In this document: one piece after another, positions 1 to 39,727 of the stretch
Layout of the letters: every line of letters begins with the position of its first letter
How positions within the stretch are numbered: the stretch's first letter is position 1
Virus record (IMG/VR): IMGVR_UViG_3300045988_129909
Span: 1 to 39,727 of that record
Source of the DNA: a virus
Reading direction: 5' to 3' (one strand)
Length of the DNA: 39,727 nucleotides
The notes under the pieces: generated by a model
The model's input: only the letters and a program-made list of their open reading frames with translations
Database searches by the model: none
Told to the model about the DNA's origin: nothing
Program-made: the position numbers and the translations under genes

Positions 1-77
1 AAGACATTCAAGCATTTTGTTAAACTGCTCACGCTGATTACCTTTAACGCCACCGCTGATATGTTCCTCAAAAATCA
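1..77. repeat. 77-bp terminal overlap, identical to 39651..39727 (circular contig closure)
   Basis: Direct comparison: aagacattcaagcattttgttaaactgctc...atgttcctcaaaaatca occurs at both window ends. The unique length is 39650 bp. Confidence 0.95.
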
Positions 78-186
78 TATCAAACTCATATCCGCTATTT
101 TCAAGCAAATACATCTGTCGCTCATAATCTTGTTTCGCTGATTTTTCAGTCGTAGATACTCTACAATAAGCTATTACTTTGCACAT
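1..186 (-). CDS. Small serine recombinase (resolvase/invertase family), N-terminal part. The gene wraps the junction and continues in 39237..39727.
   Basis: From the ATG at 184-186 the minus strand reads MCKVIAYCRVSTTEKSAKQDYERQMYLLENSGYEFDMIFEEHISGGVKGNQREQFNKMLECL, which contains the catalytic YxRVST serine motif. The frame runs off base 1 and is continued by the ORF at the other end through the 77-bp overlap, giving about 199 aa in total. Confidence 0.85.
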   Translation of the reverse strand, partial: MCKVIAYCRVSTTEKSAKQDYERQMYLLENSGYEFDMIFEEHISGGVKGNQREQFNKMLECL

Positions 187-251: not shown

Positions 252-280
252 ATTATAAGCCTTTATGTAACATTTGTCAA
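252..280 (-). promoter_or_regulatory. Sigma70-type promoter of the recombinase operon
   Basis: The minus strand reads TTGACA (275-280), a 17-nt spacer, then TATAAT (252-257), about 65 nt upstream of the recombinase ATG. Confidence 0.6.
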
Positions 281-296
281 GCGAAATATTTAATCT

Positions 297-467
297 TTAA
301 ATGATTATTTTCAATAGAAAATAGGCAAAGGCAAAATCAACCATTGCTTGCGATAGAAAAAATGCCGTAATATAAGCGGGTGCTTTGGTTTTAACGCCCA
401 TTATAGATAGTGCCAAGCCCATAATGCCTATTGTTATGCCGAATATAGCTAATATTGTTTTAAGCAT
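297..467 (-). CDS. Small hydrophobic membrane protein (56 aa), below the ORF-track cutoff
   Basis: ATG at 465-467 preceded by GGGGA. Peptide MLKTILAIFGITIGIMGLALSIMGVKTKAPAYITAFFLSQAMVDFAFAYFLLKIII has two predicted TM helices. It starts 1 nt after the stop of the upstream gene. Confidence 0.4.
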   Translation of the reverse strand: MLKTILAIFGITIGIMGLALSIMGVKTKAPAYITAFFLSQAMVDFAFAYFLLKIII

Positions 468-468
468 T

Positions 469-1110
469 TCATTCCCCTTTCTTGTCTAACAGAGCTTTCA
501 TATTTGCCAATTCTTTTAATTCATATCGGAATTGCCCCTCGTTTAATGCATCACTTGCCTTATCGAGTATACTTTCCGCGTCACCTATTTGTACCAGTTC
601 GTGACCGTAGCCGCCCTTGCTCTTTAGCCGCAGTTTGCTTGTCGACTCTTTCTGTTGTCCTTGTTCGGCTGCCGAAAGAGTAAAGTTTATTAAATCAGCT
701 TCAATATCACCGCATACTTGTTTGACATCATCGGTCGCATTGTTGCGTAAATGCTCAAATGCCGATACGCTTATCCTTGCAAATGCCAAAAATTCAAGTT
801 TATTCGGCGTATATGATATAGCCATATTTATATATGCCATAAGTGATAGATAAGCATTATAGATATTATAAATATCGTCTGCCGACAGTTTAAGGGCAAT
901 ATCATTTGTGACCGTGCGTTCCTGTCGGAGTATCTCGCCAAGTTTTACTCTTACACGGTATTCAAGAGTATCAGCTAAATACTTTTCGCCTTGCCTTGAT
1001 TTATTCATAATGTCCGAACGGCATATCTCGATAAATTCTTCAAGCTGTGACTTTACTGTCTCAACCTTAGATTGATATTGTGTTAATATTTCATTATCCA
1101 CATTATTCAC
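469..1110 (-). CDS. Hypothetical protein, possible terminase small subunit
   Basis: 213-aa ORF. The segment YTPNKLEFLAFARISVSAFEHLRN followed by SKLRLKSKGGYGHEL resembles, from memory, the HTH-plus-LKN-FGY pattern of Firmicutes phage small terminases. It is certainly coding, but the function is tentative. Confidence 0.4.
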   Translation of the reverse strand: MNNVDNEILTQYQSKVETVKSQLEEFIEICRSDIMNKSRQGEKYLADTLEYRVRVKLGEILRQERTVTNDIALKLSADDIYNIYNAYLSLMAYINMAISYTPNKLEFLAFARISVSAFEHLRNNATDDVKQVCGDIEADLINFTLSAAEQGQQKESTSKLRLKSKGGYGHELVQIGDAESILDKASDALNEGQFRYELKELANMKALLDKKGE

Positions 1111-4612: not shown

Positions 4613-4641
4613 ATAATAGCATATAGTAATTTATTTGTCAA
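4613..4641 (-). promoter_or_regulatory. Sigma70-type promoter with a shared upstream operator-like module
   Basis: The minus strand reads TTGACA (4636-4641), a 17-nt spacer, then TATTAT (4613-4618). The 27 nt at 4634-4660 are identical to 13161-13187. Confidence 0.55.
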
Positions 4642-4665
4642 GAATATTTTTAAATATTTTTTAGG

Positions 4666-7108: not shown

Positions 7109-7885
7109 TCAATCCTCCTTATTCAGCATTTGTTCAAACAAATCAATGTCATACGAGGCAAAATCAGATTTTTCAGTATGTACTGAGCGGTCATAATTCC
7201 CGTCAAGTACCTTTGCAAAATTGCTGTCTTTTATGAGCCAATCAAAATTTGCTCGCCAACTGTGATTGTTATTTCCCTTTAAAAAATTGCTCGTTTCAGC
7301 TTTAGTAAAAACAGTTCGTATTTGCTCAATATCATATTTGTTTACGAGTGATTTTATGGCGGTTTTTCTCGCATTTGATACAGTTTTCACTTTTGGCAAT
7401 GATACGCAAATTTCGTTGTATAAGCCAATAATATCGGCAATAATGTTTTCTTTTTTATCTTTTTCTTTATTATATTTAATATTTAATTTATTAGTATTTT
7501 TATTATTAGTATTTAGTTGACCTTGATTTTCTAAAGGTAGAAATTCAAGCGGTTGATTTTCTACCCCTTGTTTTTCACCCTCTTGTTTTGGAAATTCAAA
7601 TATATCATATATGTACTCAATTCTTCCTGATTTACTTTCATTTGGCATTATTTTATTTATTTTTAAATAACCAAACTCTTTTAATTCTTTGAGTGTAGAT
7701 TTTATAGCGCTTTCGTTTTCTTTGCATAGTGTTACAAGTCCTATTACAGAATACCCCCAATCATCAGGCAAAGATAACATAAGAGATAAAAGCCCTTTTG
7801 CCTTTAAACTCATATCTTTTTCTTTAAGGTGAATATTGCTCATCACAGTATAATCTTTTGTTTTATTTACTCTTATTACTGCCAT
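7109..7885 (-). CDS. Phage replisome organiser / replication initiation protein (N-terminal wHTH plus phage conserved C-terminal domain)
   Basis: AAGGAG lies 6 nt before the ATG at 7883-7885. The N-terminus is MAVIRVNKTKDYTVMSNIHLKEKDMSLKAKGLLSLMLSLPDDWGYS and the C-terminus contains WRANFDWLIKDSNFAKVLDGNY. The track start at 7975 has no RBS. Confidence 0.65.
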   Translation of the reverse strand: MAVIRVNKTKDYTVMSNIHLKEKDMSLKAKGLLSLMLSLPDDWGYSVIGLVTLCKENESAIKSTLKELKEFGYLKINKIMPNESKSGRIEYIYDIFEFPKQEGEKQGVENQPLEFLPLENQGQLNTNNKNTNKLNIKYNKEKDKKENIIADIIGLYNEICVSLPKVKTVSNARKTAIKSLVNKYDIEQIRTVFTKAETSNFLKGNNNHSWRANFDWLIKDSNFAKVLDGNYDRSVHTEKSDFASYDIDLFEQMLNKED

Positions 7886-9729: not shown

Positions 9730-10407
9730 TTATTGCTCCTTATTTAATTCGATTGTAACTGTTTGCGGGGTATCGGCTTGATTTGAATAATCAGTATAGC
9801 CGTAAACATCTTGTATTTCATCTTGTGTTTGATAGCCGTACAAAACTTCGGGGCAATATGCTCTTGCAAAAAAACTGGCGGTTCTATACCTCATCATCTG
9901 CTGGGGATAAACTTGCCATTTTGAGCCTTTTTTATCATACCACCCCTCTTTTTTAGCAAGGTCTATTGATATGACTTCGGAAGTTAAAACTTCGTTATCG
10001 GATAGCCTTGTAGCTTGTGCATAACAAGCTGTTTTTTCTTTGTTAAACACAAACTTTAAAGGTGTGAATTTATGACAATTATTTATCGCCATAATAGCAT
10101 ACTGACCCGACCAACCAATTTGACCGTTTACCGAATACATATTGTTGAGTATCATTGCCAAAGGCTGATTTGAGCGAATGGCAATATCCATAGCTACAAG
10201 TATATCTCCTGCTCTGCCCTTAAATCGTTCGGGTATGCTATTACCCTGTGCTAAATTGTTTGCAAGTTTAAATTGGAATTTCATTTGTGACGTATCATTC
10301 CAAGCCAAACCACAACTATCGGTTGTTGGCATACCAAGATTTGAATTATCAGAGGTATTTTCTTCGGTAATTTCCGAATTTTCGGTTATTGTTTCATTTT
10401 CAGCCAT
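9730..10407 (-). CDS. recT: RecT-family single-strand annealing protein
   Basis: 225 aa. Called from the pattern IPERFKG...DILVAMDIAIRSNQPLAMILNNMYSVNGQIGWSG...W...PQQMMRYRTASFFARAYCPEVLYG and the context of exonuclease and SSB. Confidence 0.6.
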   Translation of the reverse strand: MAENETITENSEITEENTSDNSNLGMPTTDSCGLAWNDTSQMKFQFKLANNLAQGNSIPERFKGRAGDILVAMDIAIRSNQPLAMILNNMYSVNGQIGWSGQYAIMAINNCHKFTPLKFVFNKEKTACYAQATRLSDNEVLTSEVISIDLAKKEGWYDKKGSKWQVYPQQMMRYRTASFFARAYCPEVLYGYQTQDEIQDVYGYTDYSNQADTPQTVTIELNKEQ

Positions 10408-11126
10408 TATTTACTCTCCTTTATGGTATTTTCTAATTGTTTAATAATATCTCCACCATAGGCATTTCGGGTTATGTCGATAAATTCTTGAACTGTAAAC
10501 ATATCGTGTTCAAGGTCATAGCCACCATTTTTGACAAATGAATTTCTGCCCATTTCGCACGAGCCAGTCAGTCGATTATGCCAAACATAAAAGTCTTTTG
10601 CGGGATATTTTTTGTTGAGGTCTGAAAATTCTTTTAGAAATAACTCAATAGCCTCATCAGTGTCCATATCCTCAAAAATTTTGTTTTGCAAATCCTCAAG
10701 CGCTTTTTCCAAAGTCTCGCCGTGTGCAAATTTATTATGACCTTTAACTATATAACAGGGCGATAAACTTAAATCACTATTTAATATAAATCCTTTAGCA
10801 ACATTGCCTTTAATATGTTTAATTACGGTAGGTATACTATCAATTTGATAAACAATATCACCATTTATTGACTTTATGCCGTAGCCGGAGCCGTCGCCGG
10901 AGCCGTAGCCGGAGCCGTAGCCGAAGCCGGAGCCGGAGCCGTAGCCGTAGCCGTAGCCGTAGCCGTCGCCGTCGCCGGAGCCGTCGCCGGAGCCGTCGCC
11001 GGAGCCGTAGCCGGAGCCGGAGTCGGAGCCGTCGCCGGAGCCGTCGCCGGAGCCGTAGCCGGAGCCGTAGCCGTAGCCGTAGCCGTTGTTGACAGACAAA
11101 AATTCTTTTATTTTTACCTCTTCCAT
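10407..11126 (-). CDS. Protein with an N-terminal G-(Y/S/D) dipeptide repeat tract and a conserved-looking C-terminal domain (WHNRLTGSCEMGR motif)
   Basis: 239 aa. The region from about residue 15 to 85 is GYGYGSGYGSGDGSGDG.... The C-terminus contains KFAHGETLEKA...YVWHNRLTGSCEMGRNSF. Confidence 0.7.
   Translation of the reverse strand: MEEVKIKEFLSVNNGYGYGYGSGYGSGDGSGDGSDSGSGYGSGDGSGDGSGDGDGYGYGYGYGSGSGFGYGSGYGSGDGSGYGIKSINGDIVYQIDSIPTVIKHIKGNVAKGFILNSDLSLSPCYIVKGHNKFAHGETLEKALEDLQNKIFEDMDTDEAIELFLKEFSDLNKKYPAKDFYVWHNRLTGSCEMGRNSFVKNGGYDLEHDMFTVQEFIDITRNAYGGDIIKQLENTIKESK
10868..11092. repeat. Hexanucleotide-periodic tandem repeat (GCCGTA/GCCGGA/GCCGTC units)
   Basis: About 37 consecutive 6-nt units read directly from the sequence. 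They create long artefactual ORFs in several frames (RLRL, SRSR). Confidence 0.9.
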
Positions 11127-13139: not shown

Positions 13140-13168
13140 ATTATATCACACTAAAAATAGTTTGTCAA
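13140..13168 (-). promoter_or_regulatory. Consensus sigma70 promoter of the early (leftward) operon
   Basis: The minus strand reads TTGACA (13163-13168), a 17-nt spacer, then TATAAT (13140-13145). The upstream 27-nt module is identical to 4634-4660. Confidence 0.7.
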
Positions 13169-13244
13169 GAATATTTTTAAATATTTTCAAATATTTTTTA
13201 GAAAAAGTTTTTTGAGAAAATTCGCACTTTTTTTATTTTTACTA

Positions 13245-20231: not shown

Positions 20232-21101
20232 CTAACTCTCAATATTGTAGACAAAGCCCTCGGTTTCTTTACTCGGTGTAGGCAATTCAGCTATTGTCGG
20301 TATAGAACCTTTAGCCTTATAAACTGATGATACTTGTGTAGCTATTGCGTTTTCAACAAAGCCCTTATTTACAGCATAATCTGTTTGTGATGAAGATGTC
20401 GGGTTTTTGATATTGGCGATAAATATGCCGTCATTTTGAATTATTATTTTCCCAACAGTATTACCATTAACATCTTTAAGGTCAAGTTCTCTATCGCTTG
20501 CACCGTCAATAACGTCAGCAAAATAATCTTGCTTTTCAAGTAAGGAATTTTTAACATCTTTACTGTTCGCTTTTTCTGACAACGCTTTTGTAACGATTTT
20601 ATTCTGTACTGCGTTTTCAGAAGTTATGGACAATTCATCGTCAATAGTTATTTCGGGTACATTGGCAGATATAACATTATTCCCGTCAATAGTGATATTG
20701 TCACCAGCGGTCAATTTATCTTGCTTTGTAGTTTTTAACTGCTCTATTTCATCGGGTGTATATTCGGAAGGCGCTGTACCGAATGTATCAGTGCCATAGC
20801 GTACCTTAATTTCATTACTCCACAGAGTAGGCAAAACCTTATCCTCAGCCACACCGAATACGCCTATGCGAAACACACCGCTTTCAGCCATTACCTCAAA
20901 CGGTATAGTCAACGTATTCGACAACTTATTAATAAGAATATTTATGGGCTTGCCACCGCAACGTTTAAAAACAATCGTATTTGAATAGTCAGCCCAAAAC
21001 TCGTCAAGGTTAATCTGGCAAGTCTTTCCGACAGTGCCACGGACAAATTCTTCCGAGGTGATTATTTCAACTTCTTTTTCGTGTACTTGCAACTTTAGCA
21101 T
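20232..21101 (-). CDS. Tail fibre protein, terminated by an in-frame TAG
   Basis: 289 aa of structural-like sequence. The stop TAG is at 20232-20234. Confidence 0.7.
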   Translation of the reverse strand: MLKLQVHEKEVEIITSEEFVRGTVGKTCQINLDEFWADYSNTIVFKRCGGKPINILINKLSNTLTIPFEVMAESGVFRIGVFGVAEDKVLPTLWSNEIKVRYGTDTFGTAPSEYTPDEIEQLKTTKQDKLTAGDNITIDGNNVISANVPEITIDDELSITSENAVQNKIVTKALSEKANSKDVKNSLLEKQDYFADVIDGASDRELDLKDVNGNTVGKIIIQNDGIFIANIKNPTSSSQTDYAVNKGFVENAIATQVSSVYKAKGSIPTIAELPTPSKETEGFVYNIES

Positions 21102-21751: not shown

Positions 21752-23029
21752 TTAATTAGATGTTATTTCACTACTGACCGTTCCTCTTAAAGCGTTTATG
21801 CCCGAAACCGAACAGTTTAAAATCGGAATAATTATTGTTCTGCCGTCTGTGGTTGTTACCTGAATATTATCCCCCGGTTCAAGAAATGGCGCATACGTAT
21901 AGGTTAAATTACCTACAACGTATTTAGATTTTAATAAATATGCGCATATATTTCTTATGATATATCTATTATATTCTTGATATGTGGAAGACCACCTTAA
22001 GTCTGAAAATGCATTGTTGCACATTGTTAAGTCAAAATCATAGGCAGGCGTTACATCTGTTTGCCCAATAGGATTAGACCATATAGTTTCTGTTTTAGAA
22101 AATCCCGTGCCGTCTGATTGCTCATACCACGTATTCAATCTATAACAAGCATATGCCGTATTTTCTAAATCGTCATAATCTATGTCTATGAAATAAGGTA
22201 ATTTATAAACAGGATTAACAGGTTGAGTTTTAAGCAATGGGAACAAAGTGCTTGACGGGAATAATGTTGTAGACGGATAGACCATATCTATAACATTATC
22301 TATTCTTATAAATTCTATTTTGTCAACAAAGCCTAATTGTGGCGTGTCTATAAAATTTTGTTCGTCTGTAAATTTAGATTTTGAAATTTTTATGTGCGCG
22401 CCCAAAACGTTTCCCAAAAAATTAAGAAAATCAGATATTAAAATCTGTGTAACATTATCACGCTTTTTAAATTTTGCAGTTCCCAATATAGAAAACTTAG
22501 CCTTTGTTTTTTCAATATCGCAATAGAATACGCCCGAAGTTACTACCATTTGTAAAAAATCGGACAATGCCACTTCTTCTCCTGTGGTATATTGATTATA
22601 GATATACGCATAATTGGCATTAAGCCTTTGCGATAATATGCTTGATATTGTAGCTGATATTGTGCGCCTATTGTCGGTAAATTTTTCTTTTTCAATAAAG
22701 CCGTTCATATATACGATATATTCCGTGCCTATTTTTTGATAAACAACGCAATATTTACCTAAATAGCGTTCGCCCTCATAAGCCCATTGTATTGTCATTT
22801 GAGGTAATACAAAAGTACCAAATTCAAAAGTATTGCTATCGATAACGCCCTCGTTGAATTGCATACTTTCACTTATTATCTGTTCGCCTGTTATCCGCTT
22901 TACAATTTTATAATAAGTTTCGCCCTCAATATCGGGGTTGTCTACTAAATCATAAATTGCAACCGTTATAGGCTTTTCCACGCTATCTTGAAAGCATAAT
23001 GCTTTATTTTCGGCAGATAAATCTACCAT
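21752..23029 (-). CDS. Tail tip / Tal-like baseplate hub protein
   Basis: 425 aa. Called on its position two genes after the tape measure. Confidence 0.5.
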   Translation of the reverse strand: MVDLSAENKALCFQDSVEKPITVAIYDLVDNPDIEGETYYKIVKRITGEQIISESMQFNEGVIDSNTFEFGTFVLPQMTIQWAYEGERYLGKYCVVYQKIGTEYIVYMNGFIEKEKFTDNRRTISATISSILSQRLNANYAYIYNQYTTGEEVALSDFLQMVVTSGVFYCDIEKTKAKFSILGTAKFKKRDNVTQILISDFLNFLGNVLGAHIKISKSKFTDEQNFIDTPQLGFVDKIEFIRIDNVIDMVYPSTTLFPSSTLFPLLKTQPVNPVYKLPYFIDIDYDDLENTAYACYRLNTWYEQSDGTGFSKTETIWSNPIGQTDVTPAYDFDLTMCNNAFSDLRWSSTYQEYNRYIIRNICAYLLKSKYVVGNLTYTYAPFLEPGDNIQVTTTDGRTIIIPILNCSVSGINALRGTVSSEITSN

Positions 23030-29695: not shown

Positions 29696-30271
29696 TTATA
29701 AAATGTTTTTATATTTCCAAATGTAGCCGTGAGCAGTTTTTCTCTGACCTATGCAACATTTTGAAATACAACTTTTGTCTTGAACACCCAAAGTATCAAC
29801 GGCGTGTTTAGCTGATTTATATTCTGCTATAAAATTACCGTCTAAATCAAATTGCAAAACGGGTATACATTTTTTCTCCCGCATTTGTTCTATGGATTGT
29901 TCATTATGGTGTCTGCCATAAAATGGATGATTTACACCCTTAAATCTTTTTGAAAGTTTTTGCTTTGTGACATCTGATAGGTGTGTATTTTTCCCGCCAC
30001 TCCTTATGTTATAACCGAATTTTTTGTCATTAGAATTAAACTTTTTTATATAATATTCTTCATAAAAGTTGGCTTCTTCTAATGATAGGTTTTCTTTTAA
30101 AACAATGTGCTCGAAATTATCCCAACCATACTTTTGTATTGCTTTCCACATTACACAGCAGGTTTCATAACCTTTCCCACCTTGTTTCCAACGATAAGAC
30201 AATTTTTGTCCAGTCTGTCCAACATAAACTTTACCATTGATTTTGTTGCGGTGCAAATAGACAGTATACAT
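29696..30271 (-). CDS. Free-standing GIY-YIG homing endonuclease
   Basis: MYTVYLHRNKINGKVYVGQT...YRWKQ...YGWDNF...EANFYEEYYI...YNIRSGG is the GIY-YIG core. NUMOD-like repeats (SDVTKQKLSKRFKG, HNEQSIEQMREK) follow. No SD sequence is present. Confidence 0.8.
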   Translation of the reverse strand: MYTVYLHRNKINGKVYVGQTGQKLSYRWKQGGKGYETCCVMWKAIQKYGWDNFEHIVLKENLSLEEANFYEEYYIKKFNSNDKKFGYNIRSGGKNTHLSDVTKQKLSKRFKGVNHPFYGRHHNEQSIEQMREKKCIPVLQFDLDGNFIAEYKSAKHAVDTLGVQDKSCISKCCIGQRKTAHGYIWKYKNIL

Positions 30272-30796: not shown

Positions 30797-30903
30797 AGTT
30801 CCTCTTTCCTGTATCAGCCTTAATTTGTAAATCCGCAGTCGGCTCTGCGCTTGATACATTCCTACCATAAACGCTGATAGGGGAGCGAATTTATAAAAAT
30901 GCC

Positions 30904-32554: not shown

Positions 32555-32854
32555 TTAGGGCTTATTTGTCATTTTCTGCACCGAATAACTTATTTTTCTC
32601 TTGCAGTTCGGGCAAATAATGTTTTGATTGCTGTTTTGTATGTTAAAATCTACATCAAATCCATATTTTACATAAACTTTTATAGATTTTGTATGGCACA
32701 TAGGACATTCTTTTACTACCAAAACACTGCCCCCTTTTAATTCTATTATATGCAACATTGAAAATTTGTCAAGTATTTTTTTAATTTGCTCGTCTGCGAT
32801 TAAGAATTGTGATAGAATTTTGCCGCTTTTTGAAAGATAAATATTTTTGAGCAT
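32555..32854 (-). CDS. Small zinc-ribbon protein (true start probably the TTG at 32720-32722, giving 55 aa)
   Basis: CPMCH...CPNCK. The long version overlaps terL by 74 nt. A consensus promoter and a GGGGG RBS sit inside it. Confidence 0.45.
   Translation of the reverse strand: MLKNIYLSKSGKILSQFLIADEQIKKILDKFSMLHIIELKGGSVLVVKECPMCHTKSIKVYVKYGFDVDFNIQNSNQNIICPNCKRKISYSVQKMTNKP
32745..32772 (-). promoter_or_regulatory. Consensus promoter between terL and portal
   Basis: The minus strand reads TTGACA (32767-32772), a 16-nt spacer, then TATAAT (32745-32750). Confidence 0.5.
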
Positions 32855-35111
32855 ACATTGCTATCACATCTACGCTATCGTCAAACGGGTTCTTTTGGAC
32901 ATAGGAAAAAGATGTTAGATATTTTAGAAATTTTCCCATTTCAGAACCTTGCGCATACATTCCAAATTCCGGAAATACAATGCACGATTTAATAGTCGCC
33001 TCATTATCATATATTTTATCTTCTTTATGCTTAAAGCTATATACTTCTGTAATATTACAATAATCTATACCTCTTTCGTAAAGCATACCACGCAATAGTG
33101 TGGCGAGGCTTGTATCAGTGTTGCGCTCTATGTGCAATCGCGTAATGTGGTGCTGCTCTATTTTACGAATTATAGTAGGATATATCTTTTCCATAGGTTT
33201 CATTTCAAATATACAGTCTTTAAGATAATGTTTGTCACCTATAGGCAAACAAATAGCCATTGCTATATAGTTTGCACCGGTACGCGCAGGGTCAAGCATA
33301 GCCCAACAGCTTTCCTCGTCTTTTTCTTCCTCAATATGTGGTATAGCCTTATATGTTAATAGATTATCATAGCTAAAAGCACAGCCCTCAATAGGCATAG
33401 GCTCTTGCATATCCATAGCCATAAAAGTATTATAGTCGGCAAGTCTGTCAGCTCGAGCTTCCTCTGTGGTGTATTTATGCGGATATGTGCTTTCGTCAGT
33501 GTCCCAATCAAGCTTAGGAACAGACACGAAAACCGCCTTATGCTGAGCATTAAACTTTGTGTATTTATTGATTTTACTCTGTTTAGCCGTATCACCACCA
33601 TATTTGCGCTTTATCGTAGACAAAAAGTCATAAATATGGTAGGTAGTGCCACTGAAAACCTCAAAACTGTTATTATCATCATATGTTCGTCTTTTCCATT
33701 GGTTTTGATACAGCTCTATATCTTTTTCGTGCATATTGATATTGCCCTTATCTTTCGACCGTGTAATATCATCGTAAAAGCGGTATTTGTATCGTCCGCC
33801 GTCTACTGAGGTGTCTTTATTCGCTAATAGGAACGATGTGCCTTTAATACTTCCGTGAATAAGCAAGCGTGCCACTTGATTATTGCCACCCTCACGCCGA
33901 ACATCAAATATTTTGTCCTTATCACCCTCAAATTGAGCATAATAAGGGAAAACCTTGGCATAATTAGGCTTGCACATATATTTTACCAATTTTGCGGACA
34001 TATCGGTTATCAATGAGGGGTTTCCGACTATTTTTAATACATCTGCGTTTATATCTATGCCAAATATATAGGATATTAGAACGGTATCGGCATAGCTATT
34101 ATGTGATACGATGCCATTTGCAATAAAATTGTGCGTTTCTTCGACTTCAATATCAACCATATCAGTTAAATCTTCGTCAAATTCTATGCTTTTTATTTTT
34201 TGCCATACAAAGTTATTTGAAAGAACCTCTTTAAGCAATCCCGTTTTTTCTAAAAATTCGTTAACTTCATCACCATAATTAAATGGCGGACAAATTTCAA
34301 AAAGGCAATCACTTAAAGCTATATCTTTACACATTTTATAACCTTTATCGGTATACAATCTATGTTCGGGGCTACAAACTATCGCTTTGCCATCATTAAG
34401 TTCAATTCTAACCTGTTTTTTCTCTGTATTCCATTTGTTTATTATTTGTCTTACGACAGCCTTATTTTCTTTCATAGAATACACAAAATCGCCAATATTA
34501 ACATCTTTGATAGGTTTATACCCCTGAATGGTTAAAATAGGCGTATCAGCTTTTAGGCACTTCCCATACCCGACCGGACATTGTTTTTCAAGGTATTTCA
34601 CTGTGCCGTCAAGCACCATTTTGTCGGCATAATACCAAAATCCCTTAAAACAATTAAGGTTATATTTCCATACCTTATCATTTTCAGGCATACCCCACTC
34701 CATATAAAGCGCAAAGTGTTCTATGTTGCGGAAAGCCGACAAAGCGTAGAAATTCTCATACAATTTGCCGTATTCGGTATAATTCTCTTGTAATTTCAGT
34801 AGCCGAGCCTTGTTTTCCTCTGTAAATTTCTCTTTTTTGAGTTTATCAGCCAAAACAGCCATTTTTTTCAGTTTATCGCGCAACGTAGGTAAAACAAATT
34901 TGCAGACATACTCAATATGCTTGCGGATTTCATCCTCGCCCTCGTTATCGCGCAACTGTGTCAAATAACCGTGTATCTGCGAGTGCATAGTGCGATATAA
35001 ATTATCGCTGACAGCTAAAACATACTCGTCACTGTCTAAATACTTTGCATTTTTGCGCATTTCGCTGAACGCAACGCAACTTTCACGAACAATCTCACCA
35101 ATATTATCCAT
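32781..35111 (-). CDS. terL: Terminase large subunit, interrupted by an in-frame mini-intein
   Basis: 776 aa with a GGAGGTG RBS. The Walker A motif CPVGYGK|...|SYADT is split by the intein. It lies immediately upstream of the portal. Confidence 0.85.
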   Translation of the reverse strand: MDNIGEIVRESCVAFSEMRKNAKYLDSDEYVLAVSDNLYRTMHSQIHGYLTQLRDNEGEDEIRKHIEYVCKFVLPTLRDKLKKMAVLADKLKKEKFTEENKARLLKLQENYTEYGKLYENFYALSAFRNIEHFALYMEWGMPENDKVWKYNLNCFKGFWYYADKMVLDGTVKYLEKQCPVGYGKCLKADTPILTIQGYKPIKDVNIGDFVYSMKENKAVVRQIINKWNTEKKQVRIELNDGKAIVCSPEHRLYTDKGYKMCKDIALSDCLFEICPPFNYGDEVNEFLEKTGLLKEVLSNNFVWQKIKSIEFDEDLTDMVDIEVEETHNFIANGIVSHNSYADTVLISYIFGIDINADVLKIVGNPSLITDMSAKLVKYMCKPNYAKVFPYYAQFEGDKDKIFDVRREGGNNQVARLLIHGSIKGTSFLLANKDTSVDGGRYKYRFYDDITRSKDKGNINMHEKDIELYQNQWKRRTYDDNNSFEVFSGTTYHIYDFLSTIKRKYGGDTAKQSKINKYTKFNAQHKAVFVSVPKLDWDTDESTYPHKYTTEEARADRLADYNTFMAMDMQEPMPIEGCAFSYDNLLTYKAIPHIEEEKDEESCWAMLDPARTGANYIAMAICLPIGDKHYLKDCIFEMKPMEKIYPTIIRKIEQHHITRLHIERNTDTSLATLLRGMLYERGIDYCNITEVYSFKHKEDKIYDNEATIKSCIVFPEFGMYAQGSEMGKFLKYLTSFSYVQKNPFDDSVDVIAMYAQKYLSFKKRQNSITILNRRRAN
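34098..34559 (-). mobile_element. Mini-intein (154 aa, Hint domain, no endonuclease domain) inserted in the terL P-loop
   Basis: It begins CLKADTPILTIQG (block A) and contains CSPEHRLYT (block B, TxxH-like) and VDIEVEETHNFIANGIVSHN|S (blocks F/G). The flanking exteins rejoin to GYGKS. Confidence 0.8.
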
Positions 35112-35137: not shown

Positions 35138-35166
35138 ATTATAGCAAATAAGCCAAACAATTTCAA
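35138..35166 (-). promoter_or_regulatory. Promoter immediately upstream of terL
   Basis: The minus strand reads TTGAAA (35161-35166), a 17-nt spacer, then TATAAT (35138-35143). Confidence 0.5.
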
Positions 35167-35171
35167 GTGCA

Positions 35172-35218
35172 TAAAAAGCGACCGCCCAGCAGAGAGGTGT
35201 ACAACTGCCAAGCGGTCA
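35172..35218 (-). terminator. Minus-strand-specific intrinsic terminator between the NTP-PPase-like gene and terL
   Basis: A 13-bp stem forms between GACCGCTTGGCAG and CTGCTGGGCGGTC, with three G-U pairs that are valid only on the minus strand, followed by GCTTTTTA. Confidence 0.5.
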
Positions 35219-35279
35219 AAGAAAGGAGATAATGAAAACGTCTAAACAAAACTTAAAAAGCTTATCAGAGTTCAAATAC

Positions 35280-35308
35280 AATATACCATATATTTTCTCA
35301 TTTGTCAA
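35280..35308 (-). promoter_or_regulatory. Sigma70-type promoter
   Basis: The minus strand reads TTGACA (35303-35308), a 17-nt spacer, then TATATT (35280-35285). Confidence 0.45.
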
Positions 35309-35382
35309 TAGCAAAAAAGCAACAGCCATAATAGCCATTGCCTTTTCGCTTTATTTAAACCCAAAATTATTACTGTATAGCC

Positions 35383-35411
35383 ATTATATCATACCCATTA
35401 CTCTTTGTCAA
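35383..35411 (-). promoter_or_regulatory. Consensus promoter overlapping the 3' end of 35398..35685
   Basis: The minus strand reads TTGACA (35406-35411), a 17-nt spacer, then TATAAT (35383-35388). Confidence 0.45.
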
Positions 35412-35685
35412 GCTCTAATAAAAACGCAACATTACAAGCAATGTGATATAAGTGTGGCAGTCCGCTATCTTCATCAACCCCGTGTGGCTCTTTCAGCCAT
35501 TTGCATATATGCCGCATTAAAGCCGCCCTATATCGTTTAGGGTCAACATTCTTATAACTGCCCTCGCCATATTTTTTAGCACCGTGTGTCATAACAACGC
35601 CCACAGCCACTATTATCTCCGCAGGCACTAAGTCCAGTCTCGGCTTGCCACCGTCGTACTTTAATCCGTCTGTAACAACATCCAT
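35398..35685 (-). CDS. All-alpha NTP pyrophosphohydrolase-like protein (dATP/dGTP diphosphohydrolase N-terminal-domain type)
   Basis: LKYDGGKPRLDLVPAEII...HGAKKYGEGSYKNV...YRAALMRHICKWL...DEDSGLPHLYHIACNVAFLLE matches the K-D-x-GK-x-R...KY...RH...D-x-SG-x-H pattern I associate with this family. Confidence 0.55.
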   Translation of the reverse strand: MDVVTDGLKYDGGKPRLDLVPAEIIVAVGVVMTHGAKKYGEGSYKNVDPKRYRAALMRHICKWLKEPHGVDEDSGLPHLYHIACNVAFLLELDKE

Positions 35686-35729
35686 TATAATTCCACCTCT
35701 CTCAAATATCAGCCATAAGCCATACCGCC

Positions 35730-35759
35730 ATTATAGCACCCCACCCCCGCGCTTGTCAA
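35730..35759 (-). promoter_or_regulatory. Consensus promoter of the late (leftward) operon
   Basis: The minus strand reads TTGACA (35754-35759), an 18-nt GC-rich spacer, then TATAAT (35730-35735). TGCATAA-type repeats lie just upstream (35764-35801). Confidence 0.65.
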
Positions 35760-35837
35760 CCTTTGCATAAATTCTGCATTTTTATTCATTTTTTATGCAT
35801 AATCTTGCAATAAAACTCTTTCAAAAACTTTTAAAAT

Positions 35838-35931
35838 TAGGAGGGGTAACCCGACCCACGGCTGCCCTCTCGGAATAGGGTTCGGGGGTATGCTTGTACC
35901 GTGTAAAGCCTTATAAATAAAGGCTTTCACC
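35838..35931 (-). ncRNA. Candidate structured RNA / multi-hairpin element (orientation uncertain)
   Basis: This is a GC-rich island in AT-rich DNA. Stems form between 35850-35857 and 35878-35886, 35887-35890 and 35897-35900, and 35901-35910 and 35922-35930. On the minus strand the series ends in TTTTAAAAGTTTTT. Confidence 0.3.
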
Positions 35932-35985
35932 GTTACAAATACGAACGATAAAGAAACAAACACGCATTTTATAATATTTAAAGTA

Positions 35986-36009
35986 CACTTTATCACTTTA
36001 TCACTTTAG
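35986..36009. repeat. Three tandem 8-mers CACTTTAT/CACTTTAT/CACTTTAG
   Basis: Read directly from the sequence. GTACACTTTA recurs at about 36071. Confidence 0.85.
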
Positions 36010-36325
36010 CGTAATAAAGACGACAGTCTTACTTTCCTATTTAATTACCATTAAATTATATATTTATCTGTACACTTTAACAATTAAATACAGTAATTAT
36101 ATAGTTATGTGCTTTTAATAAGTATAAGCAATATATAAGTATATTATAATATGGTCTTGTGCTTATGCGTATGAGCTTATACAGACAATAACAATATAAT
36201 AACACGGTGCAGGGCTTACGGCTATTACAGAGCATTTCAGGGGCTTATATAATATTGTGGTATACTCTGCATATTATGAATGAATAGGCATATCAAAATA
36301 TTTATTTTCAAATTAAAAATTTTAC

Positions 36326-36354
36326 TTGACAAATATATTATACAGTGATATAAT
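36326..36354 (+). promoter_or_regulatory. Consensus promoter of the rightward accessory module
   Basis: The plus strand reads TTGACA (36326-36331), a 17-nt spacer, then TATAAT (36349-36354). Confidence 0.7.
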
Positions 36355-36385
36355 AAAGATAACGAAAGGAAAGGAGAAAAACAAG

Positions 36386-36502
36386 ATGAAAACGGAAGAT
36401 ATTAAAAATCTGTTGCACTTGGTTGTTGAACTTCTGAAACGGTGCGGAACGGTTGACGAAGCTATAAAAGCAATTTGCAACGCTTACGACATCCACGAAT
36501 AA
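36386..36502 (+). CDS. Candidate 38-aa protein
   Basis: AAGGAG lies 9 nt before the ATG. Peptide MKTEDIKNLLHLVVELLKRCGTVDEAIKAICNAYDIHE. Confidence 0.45.
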   Translation: MKTEDIKNLLHLVVELLKRCGTVDEAIKAICNAYDIHE

Positions 36503-36512
36503 CAAACGCCGA

Positions 36513-36545
36513 GCCGGGCGGCATAACCCGGCAGCCCTTCGGGCT
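36513..36545 (+). terminator. Tandem GC hairpins (possible attenuator) after the 38-aa ORF
   Basis: GCCGGG-N8-CCCGGC (36513-36532) and AGCCC-ttc-GGGCT (36533-36545). The U-tract is weak. Confidence 0.3.
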
Positions 36546-36577
36546 TGTTGATAAAATAATTAAAAGAGGTTTTAAAA

Positions 36578-37015
36578 ATGACTAACTACAATAAACAAGC
36601 GACAGATTTTTTAAAAGACTGTAACGCTACATTAGATATAATATATCTGGGGCGAAATGTAAACGAAAATTGGGAAGAAAAGCAAAAGCGTGACAATTAT
36701 ATTGTTAATATCGTAACGCCTCGCGGCAATATGCTGGTCAGGTTTTGGGATAGTTTAAACAATACTATTGAAAACATTAACCGAAAAGCGGGAGTACCAA
36801 GAAAAGAGCCATCAGCTTACAATATTCTCTCTTGTCTTACTACTTACGACGTGGGCGATATAAAGGATTTTATTTCAGAATATGGATTTGAAATAAAAAA
36901 GCGTGGCGATTTTACCCGTATCCAAAATATCTACAATGCGGTAAAAAAAGAATACGAAGATATTTGTCGGTGCTTTACTGAAGAGCAAATTAAAAAACTA
37001 CAAGAAATTGTTTGA
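36578..37015 (+). CDS. Hypothetical protein
   Basis: 145 aa with an AAGAGG RBS. It contains the conserved-looking motifs RFWDS and PSAYNILSCL. Confidence 0.7.
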   Translation: MTNYNKQATDFLKDCNATLDIIYLGRNVNENWEEKQKRDNYIVNIVTPRGNMLVRFWDSLNNTIENINRKAGVPRKEPSAYNILSCLTTYDVGDIKDFISEYGFEIKKRGDFTRIQNIYNAVKKEYEDICRCFTEEQIKKLQEIV

Positions 37016-37195
37016 GGTGTGGTATGCGCTTATTTAAAGATGAACAAAATCATCTCATCACAGAGCAGGAGTGGCAAAGAATAATTTTATTTTTATAGCA
37101 GAGTGGCGGCGGCTTTGGCTGCCGTTAATGCGGCAGGGCATACGGTCACAAGCCCCGAAAGCCCGAAAGCATAATTTGATATTGAGGTGTAAAAA

Positions 37196-38188
37196 ATGTA
37201 TAACGGTGAACAATTAGCGCAGGCGTTGACCGTCTTTGGTCTGCCCTGCGTTTTTAAAGAAACGAAACAAACTCCACGAAACACAATATATTATTTTGAT
37301 TTTACCGACTGGGGCAAAGTCACAGCGGGCAGGCGCAAAGCAGCGCTTGACCGCCTTTCACTATACGCTAAACATCAATTTAATTATATAGACAGTAATA
37401 TTTCACATTTTGCAATATATCACGCTGAAGATAATTATAGTATTGTCCCGCTTTTTGGGCTTGCCCTTCCTGATGATGATACCTATAAATTTATAGCAGG
37501 CATAAACGAGGACGGTGAACAAGTCAACATTTCATTAGATGAAATGACACACGCACTTATTGCAGGTACTACCGGCAGCGGTAAAAGCGTATTTTTAAAA
37601 AGCCTTTTATATTCTTTATTAACTACCAATAGCCCGAATAAGATAAAATGTGCTATTATAGATAAAAAGCGCAGTTTAAATTATTGGAGCAGGGCGGCGC
37701 ACTGTCTCAAAGTGGTAAATGATGATGTTTCGGCAATAGCTTTATTAAATACTTTTCAAAAAGAAATGTATAACAGATATGAAGAATTACAGCGGCGAGG
37801 GCTTGAAAAAAATATCGGGCTGTTTCCTAAATGGGTATTGATAATTGATGAACTGGCGGACTTAATGTTAACCGACCGCAAGTCAGAAATTGAAAGTAAA
37901 CTTGTTTCACTTTGTCAGCTCGGGCGCGCCGCTGGTATTCATTGCATATTATGCACCCAGTCGCCCCGAGTTTCCGTTGTCAGTGGTTTAATTCAAGCGA
38001 ACACCCCGACAAAGATTATATTTAAAACAGCGAACACGCGGGAAAGTGTATTGTGTTTAGGTCATTCGGGAGCGGAAAAGCTGCTCGGAAATGGTGACTG
38101 CCTTATAAAATTGCCCGACAGAGTAAAAGATATTAGAGTGCAAGCGCCGTTTGCAAGTGATGAAGACTTTAGAAACTGTATAGAATAG
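37196..38188 (+). CDS. FtsK/SpoIIIE-family DNA translocase-like ATPase
   Basis: Walker A IAGTTGSGKSVFLKSL and Walker B VLIIDELADLM, plus GRAAGIHCILCTQSP. 330 aa with a TAG stop. Confidence 0.8.
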   Translation: MYNGEQLAQALTVFGLPCVFKETKQTPRNTIYYFDFTDWGKVTAGRRKAALDRLSLYAKHQFNYIDSNISHFAIYHAEDNYSIVPLFGLALPDDDTYKFIAGINEDGEQVNISLDEMTHALIAGTTGSGKSVFLKSLLYSLLTTNSPNKIKCAIIDKKRSLNYWSRAAHCLKVVNDDVSAIALLNTFQKEMYNRYEELQRRGLEKNIGLFPKWVLIIDELADLMLTDRKSEIESKLVSLCQLGRAAGIHCILCTQSPRVSVVSGLIQANTPTKIIFKTANTRESVLCLGHSGAEKLLGNGDCLIKLPDRVKDIRVQAPFASDEDFRNCIE

Positions 38189-38199
38189 AGGTATAAAAA

Positions 38200-38316
38200 A
38201 TGATTTTTAGTGTTTTAGCTTATATTTTAATAGTCGGTATTGGCTGTATATTCTTTGAGTGTACGAAAACAGGGCAGAAAATAGCCGATAAAATCTATAA
38301 GAAAATAATAAAATAA
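38200..38316 (+). CDS. Candidate 38-aa membrane peptide
   Basis: MIFSVLAYILIVGIGCIFFECTKTGQKIADKIYKKIIK. It lies 11 nt after the ATPase stop and is followed by a terminator. Confidence 0.4.
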   Translation: MIFSVLAYILIVGIGCIFFECTKTGQKIADKIYKKIIK

Positions 38317-38324
38317 TGTTTTTG

Positions 38325-38354
38325 ACCGTCCGCAGCTCGTGGGCGGTTCTTTTT
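38325..38354 (+). terminator. Intrinsic terminator of the rightward module
   Basis: ACCGTCCGC-agctc-GTGGGCGGT followed by TCTTTTT. Confidence 0.65.
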
Positions 38355-38527
38355 ATGCCTATTTAAAACTATGCTCTAAAATGCTTTGTATTGCGTTTTA
38401 ATATTCACTTAAGTATTTATATTCCCAAATAATAAAAAAGCCGTACAGCCCCAAAAGAAACGATATTTTTAATATTCTAAAGCAAAAAGAAACTGCCGAA
38501 AGTGTTTTTAAACTCTCGACAGCCTTT

Positions 38528-38998
38528 TTATTGTTCCGATGTGGCTTGTAGTTCGGCTTGCAACCTCTCAAACACTGCTTGCCGGCTGATGTGGTGTCTT
38601 CTTGCTATTTCCGATATATCGCCCCATATCGCTTTGCCCTCTCTACGCATAAGAGCGGCTTTTTTTATTTCCTCGCATAGTTCCGCTTTCGGCGGTCGTG
38701 TTTTAATATTACAATAGGCATTTAAAGTATATCTCACATTATATCGGGATATATTTAATTTATGGGCTATCATATCCACATTATGCAGTCCACTTTCCCA
38801 CAAGGCTTTTATTTGCTCCTTGTTGGCGGTGCCGTCATCGCTTACCGCTCTGCCTCGCCTTATTGTTCCACCGTTCGCCTTTATTGTATTGACAACATAA
38901 TATCGCGATACTCCTACAATATTGGCGGTTCTCGTTACAGTATAGCCCTTATAATGGCATATCATAATATCGTCTATTTGGCTTTGCTTTAATTTCAT
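38528..38998 (-). CDS. DNA-binding protein with three HTH-like repeats
   Basis: The repeats are YTVTRTANIVGVSRYYVVNTI, VDMIAHKLNISRYNVRYTL and ISEIARRHHISRQAVFERL. Confidence 0.6.
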   Translation of the reverse strand: MKLKQSQIDDIMICHYKGYTVTRTANIVGVSRYYVVNTIKANGGTIRRGRAVSDDGTANKEQIKALWESGLHNVDMIAHKLNISRYNVRYTLNAYCNIKTRPPKAELCEEIKKAALMRREGKAIWGDISEIARRHHISRQAVFERLQAELQATSEQ

Positions 38999-39240
38999 TC
39001 GGTCATTGCTCCCGTTGGGTCTTCAATCCAGTAAATACCTATAACCGTATTTCGCCCATAACGATTTTTAACCACTTCATCACGGCGTTTTATTATATAT
39101 CCCTTGTTGCGTAAATGGTATATAATTCCGCTTAGCCTTGTTGCACCGTAAAGTTCTATTGCCTGCATTGATGTTAATTCTCTGCCTGATAATAAATGCT
39201 TTAATATGGCTTTTGTTTGCGTGTTGTCGCGTATCATCAT
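38995..39240 (-). CDS. Winged-helix DNA-binding protein (HTH_39-like)
   Basis: ELTSMQAIELYGATRLSGIIYHLRNKGYIIKRR is the pattern. Confidence 0.55.
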   Translation of the reverse strand: MMIRDNTQTKAILKHLLSGRELTSMQAIELYGATRLSGIIYHLRNKGYIIKRRDEVVKNRYGRNTVIGIYWIEDPTGAMTE

Positions 39241-39727
39241 TCTACCCCCTTTAATATTCTGCTTACCGTAGCTATGCTTATATTTAATATATTGGCTATA
39301 TCTCTGTAACTCTTGTGTTCAGTTTTCAAATTAAACACTTGCTGCCGAATTTCGTCCGATATTGTTTTCGGTCTGCCGAGTGTAACACCCTGTTGTTTTT
39401 TTCTTTGCAATGCGTTAGATGTATTATACCCTATTTGTCTTTTCAAAAATTCATCTTGTATAAAGAATTGAGATATAGTCATCCAAGTATACGGGTTCAT
39501 TTTTTCCCCGCCCTCTAATGTTATACCATTGCTCAAAAACTTTACAGTTGCTTTTTTCTGTTGTGTTATTAAATCAAGCATTTCAAAGCAATCAATATAA
39601 TTTCTGCCAAAGCGTGATGTTTCGGTAAGGCAAACAATGTCTGTCGGTTCAAGACATTCAAGCATTTTGTTAAACTGCTCACGCTGATTACCTTTAACGC
39701 CACCGCTGATATGTTCCTCAAAAATCA
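39237..39727 (-). CDS. Small serine recombinase, C-terminal part (continues from 1..186 through the circular junction)
   Basis: The frame is open to the window end. It contains the catalytic-domain core LTETSRFGRN and the C-terminal HTH SYRDIANILNISIATVSRILKG. Confidence 0.85.
   Translation of the reverse strand, partial: IFEEHISGGVKGNQREQFNKMLECLEPTDIVCLTETSRFGRNYIDCFEMLDLITQQKKATVKFLSNGITLEGGEKMNPYTWMTISQFFIQDEFLKRQIGYNTSNALQRKKQQGVTLGRPKTISDEIRQQVFNLKTEHKSYRDIANILNISIATVSRILKGVE

Follow-up and report, generated by a model that had tools for sequence, protein, structure and literature searches.

Genes for FtsK/SpoIIIE-family ATPases adjoin a recombination module or an integrase gene in phages of the Bacillus cereus group (PMC3335513, PMC4113786). 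Such genes are annotated in hundreds of phages without a known role, including 248 INPHARED records with an FtsK match, 158 of them Bacillus phages. Hammerhead, twister and pistol ribozymes flank non-conserved prophage genes, for reasons that are unknown (PMC3088659, PMC4604425, PMC10085705), and the summaries of published work on phage ribozymes emphasise genes of Mu-like phages and integrases. We describe a locus where elements of both kinds occur together. The IMG/VR virus record IMGVR_UViG_3300045988_129909, analysed over its full 39,727 nucleotides (nt) and called the window below, carries between a probable small terminase gene (terS) and the large terminase gene (terL) a module of two convergent operons. 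One encodes a small FtsK-type motor (mini-FtsK) preceded by a predicted twister ribozyme, the other a small serine recombinase. The module is the junction at which the early gene block meets the late one, and it is conserved across an uncultured clade of tailed gut phages with genomes of about 40-50 kb.

The features of the junction are given here in their order along the circular map, starting from terL; protein lengths are in amino acids (aa), ORF stands for open reading frame and HTH for helix-turn-helix.

32781..35111, minus strand: terL with a mini-intein (PF22530 nuclease domain; Intein_splicing 1.5e-15, residues 210-338), the downstream boundary of the module.
35166-35759, minus strand: four tandem near-consensus promoters pointing at terL, with first hexamers at 35759, 35411, 35308 and 35166.
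35398-35685, minus strand: MazZ-like gene, 95 aa (PF18909, 7.9e-27).
35686..36325, no strand: non-coding control region between divergent promoters, from composition, repeat and promoter scans.
36326..36354, plus strand: sigma-70 promoter of the FtsK operon, 12/12 consensus and TG-extended at the -10; no other near-consensus promoter lies on the plus strand of the genome.
36386-36502, plus strand: leader ORF, 38 aa, kept in related loci L001-L005 and L031.
36506-36543, plus strand: predicted G+C-rich hairpins after the leader ORF.
36578..37015, plus strand: cargo gene, 145 aa, in a variable slot, matching the function-unknown family phrog_4273.
37097..37158, plus strand: predicted Twister-P5 ribozyme (RF02684), after the cargo gene and 38 nt ahead of the FtsK start codon.
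37196..38188, plus strand: mini-FtsK, 330 aa (PF01580, 3.5e-30; phrog_1358, 7.9e-57).
38200..38316, plus strand: membrane peptide, 38 aa, with an N-terminal transmembrane helix and a basic tail.
38324..38525, no strand: convergent intergenic region with one terminator-like hairpin per operon (plus strand 38324-38358, minus strand 38525-38490).
38528..38998, minus strand: multi-HTH protein, 156 aa, third gene of the recombinase operon, with several HTH_7-like motifs (HTH_7 at 2.5e-8, and other HTH families).
38995..39240, minus strand: winged-helix protein HTH_39, 81 aa, second gene (PF14090, 1.6e-12; phrog_4973), kept in L004, L030 and L031.
39237..39727, minus strand: C-terminal part of the serine recombinase, including an HTH_7-type DNA-binding domain (Pfam, PHROG, Tn3 resolvase alignment).
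1..186, minus strand: N-terminal part of the serine recombinase, including the catalytic RVST motif (Pfam Resolvase, PF00239).
252..280, minus strand: sigma-70 promoter of the recombinase operon, 12/12 consensus (TTGACA, 17 nt, TATAAT).
297..467, minus strand: hydrophobic (membrane) ORF, 56 aa, between the 213-aa gene and the recombinase promoter, also a called gene in L004, L025 and L030.
469..1110, minus strand: probable small terminase, 213 aa, the last large gene of the early block.

The first-pass annotation, made from the letters of the window alone, had named a serine recombinase, a winged-helix protein, a multi-HTH protein and an FtsK-type ATPase, and profile searches confirm all four. 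Every gene that it listed is present. It had also given each operon a promoter of its own, and the FtsK operon a terminator; each operon has both, as borne out by the 12/12 promoters at 280-252 and 36326-36354 and the hairpins in 38324-38525. The Twister-P5 ribozyme, the 56-aa membrane ORF, the 95-aa MazZ-like gene and the four tandem promoters directed at terL had been missed.

Bases 1-77 of the window duplicate bases 39651-39727. With identical 77-bp ends, the genome is therefore circular or circularly permuted, with a length of 39,650 bp, and the blocks at the two ends of the window are contiguous on the circular map. Nearly all genes lie on the minus strand and the FtsK operon is the sole operon on the other; a genome-wide promoter scan places near-consensus promoters on coding strands only. 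PHROG and Pfam matches identify a late block of terL, portal, capsid and tail genes, an amidase endolysin and holin-like ORFs, and an early block with an exonuclease, RecT, an ERCC4-type nuclease, a single-stranded DNA-binding protein (SSB), a DnaD-like initiator, several methyltransferases and a PAPS-reductase-like protein. Last in the early block come a weak DUF1492/phrog_36 regulator-like gene (1103-1567), the 213-aa gene and the small membrane ORF.

Five IMG/VR relatives, at 85-96% nucleotide identity, retain the whole arrangement. The sole differences from the window concern the cargo slot at 36580-37192, the terL intein and a homing endonuclease gene at 29696-30271; within the module, only the cargo genes come and go. 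FtsK is likewise divergent from terL in L025, L031, L023, L012, L027, L028 and L029, at FtsK identities of 29-85%. L025 has a 218-aa homolog of the 213-aa protein (68% identity), followed by a membrane ORF, a resolvase, an HTH protein, a convergent FtsK operon, terL and portal. L023 (recombinase 75%, FtsK 29%, terL 40-54%) and L024 (recombinase 76%, FtsK 29%) both have a homolog of the 213-aa protein, the recombinase and an opposite-strand FtsK, with terL next in L023 and beyond the fetched locus in L024. An FtsK operon divergent from terL occurs also in L012, where portal, terL and FtsK are about 40% identical to those of the window. L027, L028 and L029 (FtsK 38-51%) show an early block, an opposite-strand FtsK operon, a serine recombinase of about 255 aa, terL and portal.

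Locus counts were obtained by running hidden Markov models (HMMs) made from clade sequences on 80 IMG/VR FtsK loci, of which 32 were classed as mini-FtsK loci by an FtsK gene of at most 1300 nt with at least 7 kb of upstream sequence. The terL gene is divergent from FtsK, at a distance of 1.6-9 kb, in 23 of the 32, and a serine recombinase, always on the terL strand, is found in 18; because the terL, portal and recombinase models come from this clade, the counts are minimum values and favour its members. In 11 of the 18 loci the recombinase is placed between the FtsK operon and terL, in the other 7 beyond the 3' end of FtsK, and it occurs together with terL in 17 of the 32. Among 37 loci with a large FtsK, the same models find no recombinase and a single terL.

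The second regularity of the junction is the presence of ribozymes ahead of FtsK. The predicted self-cleaving twister at 37097-37158 matches the full Rfam model (positions 1-58) at 51.8 bits, against a gathering threshold of 37.6 (E = 4.5e-8). An identical copy is found in L001, L002, L004 and L005, and other twisters in L025, L027 (two), L029 and L032; these nine further copies score 41-67 bits. Across six copies the twister stems covary, with compensatory changes in 5 of 13 predicted pairs. Hammerhead-II ribozymes occupy the corresponding place in L025, L048 (two), L050 and L051 (two), and a pistol ribozyme that of L023. Altogether, the Rfam scan of about 600 kb gave 17 ribozyme hits from about nine lineages, all on the FtsK strand, either between cargo genes or directly before FtsK, each at most 1.7 kb upstream of it; no ribozyme was found elsewhere in the scanned loci. 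The association of ribozymes with FtsK is well supported, and we regard it as very probably real.

The FtsK promoter is invariant among the relatives. The genes that follow it are exchanged at gene boundaries. In L003 the leader leads straight to a 128-aa gene; in L001 and L004 a 78-aa gene with a twister is inserted ahead of that gene; in the window a 145-aa gene with a twister is found without it. The slot at 36580-37192 holds in relatives 78-aa and 128-aa genes, the 128-aa gene alone, or a DUF8033 gene with two small genes. Cargo elsewhere includes DUF8033 proteins (L012, L027, L031) and a RES-domain protein. The latter, 302 aa long, lies directly upstream of a mini-FtsK 69% identical to that of the window in several contexts (L008-L011, Clostridia contigs from metagenomes and metagenome-assembled genomes, MAGs). 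One such pair is at the edge of an integrated mobile element beside host corrinoid-methyltransferase genes in Clostridia MAGs. As a separate observation, 1.65 kb directly upstream of FtsK in L012 (8346-10001) has no convincing ORF or Rfam match, and may be an undescribed RNA or contain missed genes.

Mini-FtsK is, as judged from its sequence, an intact alpha-beta double-stranded DNA translocase motor. The profile of its family aligns with the solved motor structures (PDB 2IUS, 2IUU, 2IUT) at about 1e-79 over positions 23-332, covering the alpha and beta domains, and the motifs GTTGSGKS (Walker A), IIDELADL (Walker B) and TQSPRV are readable. The protein begins about 20 residues ahead of the alpha domain and stops at the end of the beta domain. 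It has no transmembrane segment, no N-terminal membrane or septum domain and no gamma domain, the Pfam search giving no Ftsk_gamma match. The possibility that the winged-helix protein of the facing operon represents a detached gamma domain was rejected, sequence comparison giving it no support. The 38-aa membrane peptide was likewise rejected as a general tether for FtsK, being found in the window's sublineage only.

The recombinase gene crosses the circular join (186..1 plus 39650..39237) and encodes 199 aa. It belongs to the small resolvase/invertase-type serine recombinases and, to judge from the alignments, has its catalytic motifs intact: Pfam Resolvase (PF00239) matches residues 4-151 at 3.5e-21, with motifs YCRVST and SRFGRN present, and Tn3 resolvase aligns over the full length, HTH included (1e-10, residues 3-196). 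HTH_7, HTH_38 and HTH_32 match at residues 142-197, each below its own Pfam cut-off. The best PHROG family is phrog_125, 'DNA invertase' (1.8e-40), and the best NCBIfam model is the Mpi master invertase, far below its cut-off. Pfam finds none of the domains of large serine integrases (PF07508 Recombinase, zinc ribbon, coiled coil) in this protein; the ~255-aa recombinases of the sister lineages L027-L029 have Resolvase and Recombinase domains only. Recombinases of plasmids and cultured phages are only 27-34% identical to it. A near-consensus promoter precedes the recombinase gene in most relatives, and the 156-aa multi-HTH protein is 39% identical to the product of a 160-aa gene after the recombinase of L025. 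A search for res or crossover sites around the recombinase promoter and 5' untranslated region showed only short dyads and repeats.

The claim that the module parts terS from terL stands, with terS graded as probable. Searches of Pfam, PHROG, NCBIfam and the PDB sequences give no match for the 213-aa protein, and sequence searches for terS failed with both this and the 156-aa protein; comparison with the phrog_606-type terS of L027 by hhalign gives a probability of 0.4%. The 213-aa protein is nonetheless the probable terS by fold, homology, position and motif. Support from the fold is moderate: its AlphaFold2 model (mean pLDDT 69) finds 'DNA-packaging protein small subunit' at 1.1e-4 and weaker terS entries in BFVD, with TM scores of 0.3-0.5; a PDB fold search with the model returned nothing. 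The gene that closes the early block of L012 encodes a homolog (hhalign probability 95.9%). Its position after the DUF1492-like gene, at the end of the early block, is that of a gene in L027 and L028 which matches the terS families PF16677 and phrog_606 and lies just past the 3' end of the FtsK operon. A typical HTH-like motif, 'P-x-K-L-E-F-L-A-F-A-R-I-S', was read by eye. In L027 and L028, too, the FtsK operon and a serine recombinase stand between terS and terL, so that separation of terS from terL by the module is a trait of the clade whether or not the 213-aa protein is terS.

The control region at 35686-36325 had been described as AT-rich and full of short repeats. The first part of this description is correct, with 32% GC overall and 26% in 35951-36325; the second is overstated, as the region contains 22 repeated 8-mers where shuffles give 12 +/- 4.6, a count of 22 is attained by 14 of 500 shuffles, and its repetitiveness ranks 9th of 123 windows of the genome. 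The clearest repeat, the 8-bp CACTTTAT in 2.9 copies at 35986-36008, is not kept in all relatives. Other elements are a minus-strand promoter (35759-35730), a G+C-rich block (35838-35890), a hairpin (35894-35938) and a dyad (35931-35949). The block, with core GGGGTAACC...ATAGGG, and the dyad, GTTACAAATACGAAC, are both conserved, unique in the genome and upstream of the terL promoters. The block core recurs upstream of terL in L031 (8332-8370) and in the distant L015 (14614-14653), whose terL is 33-46% identical to that of the window. Block and dyad may be a cos or pac site, an origin or a regulator site. A structured RNA was rejected for the block, for which there is no covariation, Rfam match, or promoter placed to transcribe it.

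On the late side of this region, the MazZ-like protein comprises only the N-terminal domain of a dATP/dGTP diphosphohydrolase and is encoded by the first gene after the strongest late-side promoter; L025 lacks it. The intein segment of terL (about 34100-34560) is precisely absent from L002, whereas at 34257-34264 about 700 bp are added in L001 and L003. Relatives of this terL are absent from PDB, and those among the cultured phages of INPHARED are 22-24% identical. An attempt to infer the packaging mode from terL homology failed for this reason. With no cultured-phage relative of terL above 24% identity, the clade is essentially uncharacterised.

The explanation that we favour, tentatively and as something short of probable, is that the module consists of conserved independent units, one of them a ribozyme-processed operon, which handle the phage's own DNA. 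Host RNA polymerase would fire the consensus promoters independently of the main phage programme. The ribozyme would cut the polycistronic RNA, parting the variable cargo message from the FtsK message and leaving the latter with a structured 5'-OH end. The FtsK hexamer would pump double-stranded DNA, possibly held at the membrane by the 38-aa peptide in the window's sublineage, and the recombinase would act on supercoiled phage circles at a putative site. With low confidence, we propose that it is the replicating DNA of the phage that is handled, the recombinase resolving multimers and FtsK moving or segregating DNA, possibly in a carrier state. In favour of this explanation are the conserved layout, the recurrent ribozymes, the intact motor and resolvase-like recombinase, contig data without a sign of integration, near-consensus promoters confined to coding strands, and the published precedents, among them the FtsK/SpoIIIE modules beside the integrase of B. 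cereus gamma-like phages, which the proposed units resemble. A more specific scheme, in which the gamma-less FtsK is recruited by the HTH proteins to non-coding short repeats and directs or activates the serine recombinase at a simple site as a counterpart of FtsK-XerCD/dif, is distinctly improbable. If it were true, non-integrating phages would have a means to resolve their circles, and to segregate them, when hosts divide or sporulate, with ribozymes setting the ratio of cargo to motor.

Besides the clade bias of the locus counts, several observations weigh against own-DNA handling. FtsK occurs without the recombinase in L012, L033, L048, L050 and L051, and the recombinase without FtsK in L015, L110 and L111; the two are therefore not obligate partners, which weakens a strict pairing of the Xer/FtsK type. 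No recombination site was identified. Multimer resolution would bring little gain to any concatemer-packaging phage, unless there is a carrier or episomal state. The 38-aa membrane peptide is limited to the window's own sublineage, in 13 of 52 loci. Toxin-like domains, RES and Fic, adjoin FtsK in relatives and point to host takeover instead. Neither ParA/ParB nor a plasmid Rep was found, the replication genes being phage-type (DnaD-like, SSB, RecT/exonuclease), and no PLSDB plasmid carries a related portal.

The question of lifestyle bears on this proposal and on its rivals alike. Scans of about 40 proteins with PHROG, Pfam, NCBIfam and PADLOC find neither an integrase, of the tyrosine or the large serine type, nor a CI/Cro-type switch, in agreement with the first reading of the window. 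All 65 clusters of homologs of the 213-aa protein are on contigs of at most 42.9 kb, and the best 120 recombinase homolog clusters (68-98% identity) are on contigs of at most 57 kb, mostly 40-44 kb, although metagenome contig sizes cannot prove that integration is absent. Two contigs above 50 kb were inspected (53.8 and 55.6 kb), and all genes up to 10 kb from their recombinase are phage-like. Related recombinases also occur on four MAG contigs, which measure 8.6-48 kb, not above the size of a phage genome. Taken together, the contig, MAG, PLSDB and recombinase-identity results argue against an integrase role and give no positive sign of a plasmid state. The clade appears to be non-integrating; a phage-plasmid life is neither supported nor excluded.

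The main rival to own-DNA handling, somewhat unlikely in our judgement, reads the FtsK operon as an early operon for host takeover or anti-defence. The operon would be a moron-like hotspot whose cargo and FtsK act on the host, with FtsK poisoning or mimicking host FtsK/SpoIIIE, stripping or moving host DNA, or blocking division or sporulation; the recombinase would be an unrelated neighbour at a permissive boundary of early and late genes. An opposite-strand operon with its own consensus promoter and terminator, a hypervariable cargo slot, and RES and Fic domains beside FtsK in relatives are all in keeping with this, as is the PHROGs category of the FtsK family, 'moron, AMG and host takeover' (AMG, auxiliary metabolic gene). 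A motor without N-terminal targeting and sequence-reading gamma domains would suit a dominant-negative role, FtsK and recombinase each occur alone, and a role in host sporulation has been suggested (PMC4113786). On the other hand, FtsK has been fixed by terL through deep divergence, more like a core gene than a moron, and the recombinase accompanies FtsK in 18 of the 32 loci, more often than an unrelated neighbour would suggest. PADLOC, moreover, gives no system-level match, only generic FtsK/HerA-type ATPase hits (SspH FtsK-like C-terminal domain, 8e-42; mad8, 5e-25). These are hits to ATPase domains without partner proteins, and identification as a known defence system was rejected. A lysogeny module, with the recombinase as integrase, attP beside it and the FtsK operon expressed from the prophage, is rather improbable. 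FtsK does adjoin a recombination gene on the circular map, as in the B. cereus gamma-like prophages (PMC3335513), the 69%-identical FtsK is at the edge of a mobile element beside host genes in Clostridia MAGs, and opposite-strand genes of temperate phages are typically lysogen-expressed. Yet the recombinase is of the 199-aa resolvase/invertase type without the recombinase and zinc-ribbon domains of serine integrases, a repressor switch was not found, none of the homolog clusters on contigs up to 57 kb has host flanks, and the MAG contigs are phage-genome-sized at most.

Cyclisation in the manner of P1 Cre/lox is quite improbable. The site would lie near pac, as cre-lox does in P1, and would be doubled in terminally redundant headful DNA that is circularised after injection. 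The position of the recombinase beside the probable terS, or directly upstream of terL in 11 sister loci, its strong host-type promoter, and a circular assembly compatible with circular permutation would all fit. Those small resolvases and invertases that have been characterised, in the Tn3/gamma-delta and Hin/Gin families, however, require supercoiled substrates, not linear injected DNA; the exonuclease/RecT pair of the phage could itself circularise DNA; and terL has no characterised relative to show the packaging mode, nor has a site been identified. Very improbable is the reading put forward by the first-pass annotation, of an accessory island or mobile module that recently colonised the packaging region between terS and terL, possibly conferring a phage-plasmid lifestyle. 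The module does part the probable terS from terL, has its own promoters and terminators, and varies in cargo. Its gene order, however, is kept in the five relatives, in phages with 29-54% identity in terL, portal and FtsK, and in 23 of the 32 mini-FtsK loci; the module occupies this place in all relatives inspected, down to 29-40% protein identity. The order is thus the conserved backbone of the group, and the island reading fails. A 1-kb composition profile shows no evident break at the module, no direct or inverted repeats were found to flank it, and plasmid partition genes, replication genes and plasmid relatives were not found. We rate just as low a DNA invertase acting on a phase-variable segment or promoter, as Gin, Cin and the gut 'invertons' do. 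In its favour are the best PHROG and NCBIfam matches of the recombinase and a 20-nt inverted repeat (19/20 bases; 20670-20689 and 22252-22271) that brackets 1.56 kb of tail genes. Inversion of the FtsK operon or its promoter was nevertheless rejected, because no credible inverted repeats flank either and none of the five relatives shows an inversion across the module. Inversion of tail fibre genes at the 20670/22252 repeat was rejected as well: the tail region is collinear in two relatives, both without the repeat motif, and alternative opposite-strand tail-fibre ORFs are absent. The core of the tail repeat, ATTCCCGTCAA, has a third copy at 7196 (7192-7213).

Other features were recorded elsewhere in the window. 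A free-standing homing endonuclease gene on the minus strand (29696-30271; phrog_314, with GIY-YIG/HNH-type matches) is located between capsid and scaffold-region genes; its absence from each of the five close relatives suggests a selfish insertion of recent date. A GP20-a RNA motif (30798-30890, minus strand), below threshold in Rfam at 40.3 against 47.2 bits, lies upstream of a 196-aa gene after portal, and is kept in L003 at 3245-3337. Within a 239-aa early ORF (10407-11126), a 209-bp array (10878-11086) of about 35 copies of a 6/12-bp unit, GCCGTA, encodes a low-complexity repeat. A C5 DNA methyltransferase is apparently split into overlapping minus-strand ORFs (4666-4968 and 4956-5879) that match consecutive parts of phrog_116, and it is split likewise in L012 (338 aa plus 103 aa). 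Two copies of a 48-nt block, 79% identical to each other, are present in the early region (4613-4660 and 13140-13187); the block includes AATATTTTTA repeats and a consensus promoter, and may be a shared operator. The sole DNA similarity to a cultured phage is purine-rich and was treated as chance: 48 nt at 36346-36393, spanning the -10, the ribosome-binding site and the start of the leader ORF, are 87.5% identical to Gokushovirus WZ-2015a.

The fixed place of FtsK, on the opposite strand, divergent from terL, usually with the recombinase near, and splitting terS from terL, narrows the hypotheses for its role to the handling of DNA as replication gives way to packaging or to a carrier state. 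The purpose of bacterial and phage ribozymes is an open question. Here three unrelated self-cleaving classes share one operon slot, in a defined, comparable and tractable setting where a single promoter precedes an exchangeable gene, a ribozyme and then a conserved gene. For annotation, the junction carries a caution: a module that lies between packaging genes and has promoters of its own is not necessarily a recent arrival.

Comparison with known systems begins with the temperate siphophages of the B. cereus group (gamma, Fah, W-beta, phIS3501 p50, BtCS33 and phiCM3). Like the window, these have a stand-alone FtsK-family ATPase of unknown role, which adjoins a site-specific recombination gene on the circular genome and is expressed separately, as 'delayed early' in Fah (PMC4113786, PMC3335513). 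They differ in that they encode a repressor and a tyrosine integrase and have prophage states that are known, and identity is below 60%. In these phages FtsK is encoded after the lysis genes instead of between terS and terL, and ribozymes and a cargo slot are undescribed there.

The junction resembles FtsK-XerCD/dif in that an FtsK motor and a site-specific recombinase are encoded together; the analogy, with a translocase that aids multimer resolution, was drawn in the first-pass annotation. It differs in that the recombinase is a serine rather than a tyrosine enzyme, the genes are in separate convergent operons and each is also found alone, and the phage FtsK has neither the gamma domain, which reads KOPS and activates XerD, nor the septum-targeting membrane domain. 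With Tn3/gamma-delta resolvase and Hin, Gin and Cin the recombinase shares its N-terminal RVST catalytic domain, its C-terminal HTH_7 and a length of about 190-200 aa, but it is co-transcribed with two extra HTH proteins, and neither a res site nor a hix/gix pair nor an invertible segment was found in the window. By analogy with P1 Cre/lox, a recombinase gene near the packaging genes of a non-integrating phage might serve circularisation or multimer resolution. Cre, however, belongs to the tyrosine recombinases and acts on DNA that is linear or relaxed, and P1 has plasmid replication and partition genes, of which none was seen in the window. TraB/clt of Streptomyces pairs an FtsK-like hexameric pump for double-stranded DNA with a short cis locus of 8-bp repeats, which the 8-bp repeats of the control region recall. 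NCBIfam TraB, however, matches the window FtsK weakly (1.7e-4), TraB has its own winged-helix domain and membrane association, the repeats of the window are not in all relatives, and cell-to-cell transfer is without evidence in this phage.

Prophage ribozymes, like those described here, are placed between short non-conserved phage genes, with different classes at equivalent places; in this clade they are bound to one conserved operon, on its sense strand, upstream of mini-FtsK and beside terL. The components of the junction are each of a known kind, and earlier work has noted both FtsK-like phage genes and ribozymes close to variable genes of phages. What appears to be undescribed, the published gene associations of ribozymes having been compared by their summaries, is the clade-wide combination: a sigma-70 operon on the opposite strand, with swappable cargo, interchangeable ribozymes and an FtsK without gamma or membrane domains, fixed in position beside terL, where it splits terS from terL, and usually accompanied by a serine recombinase.

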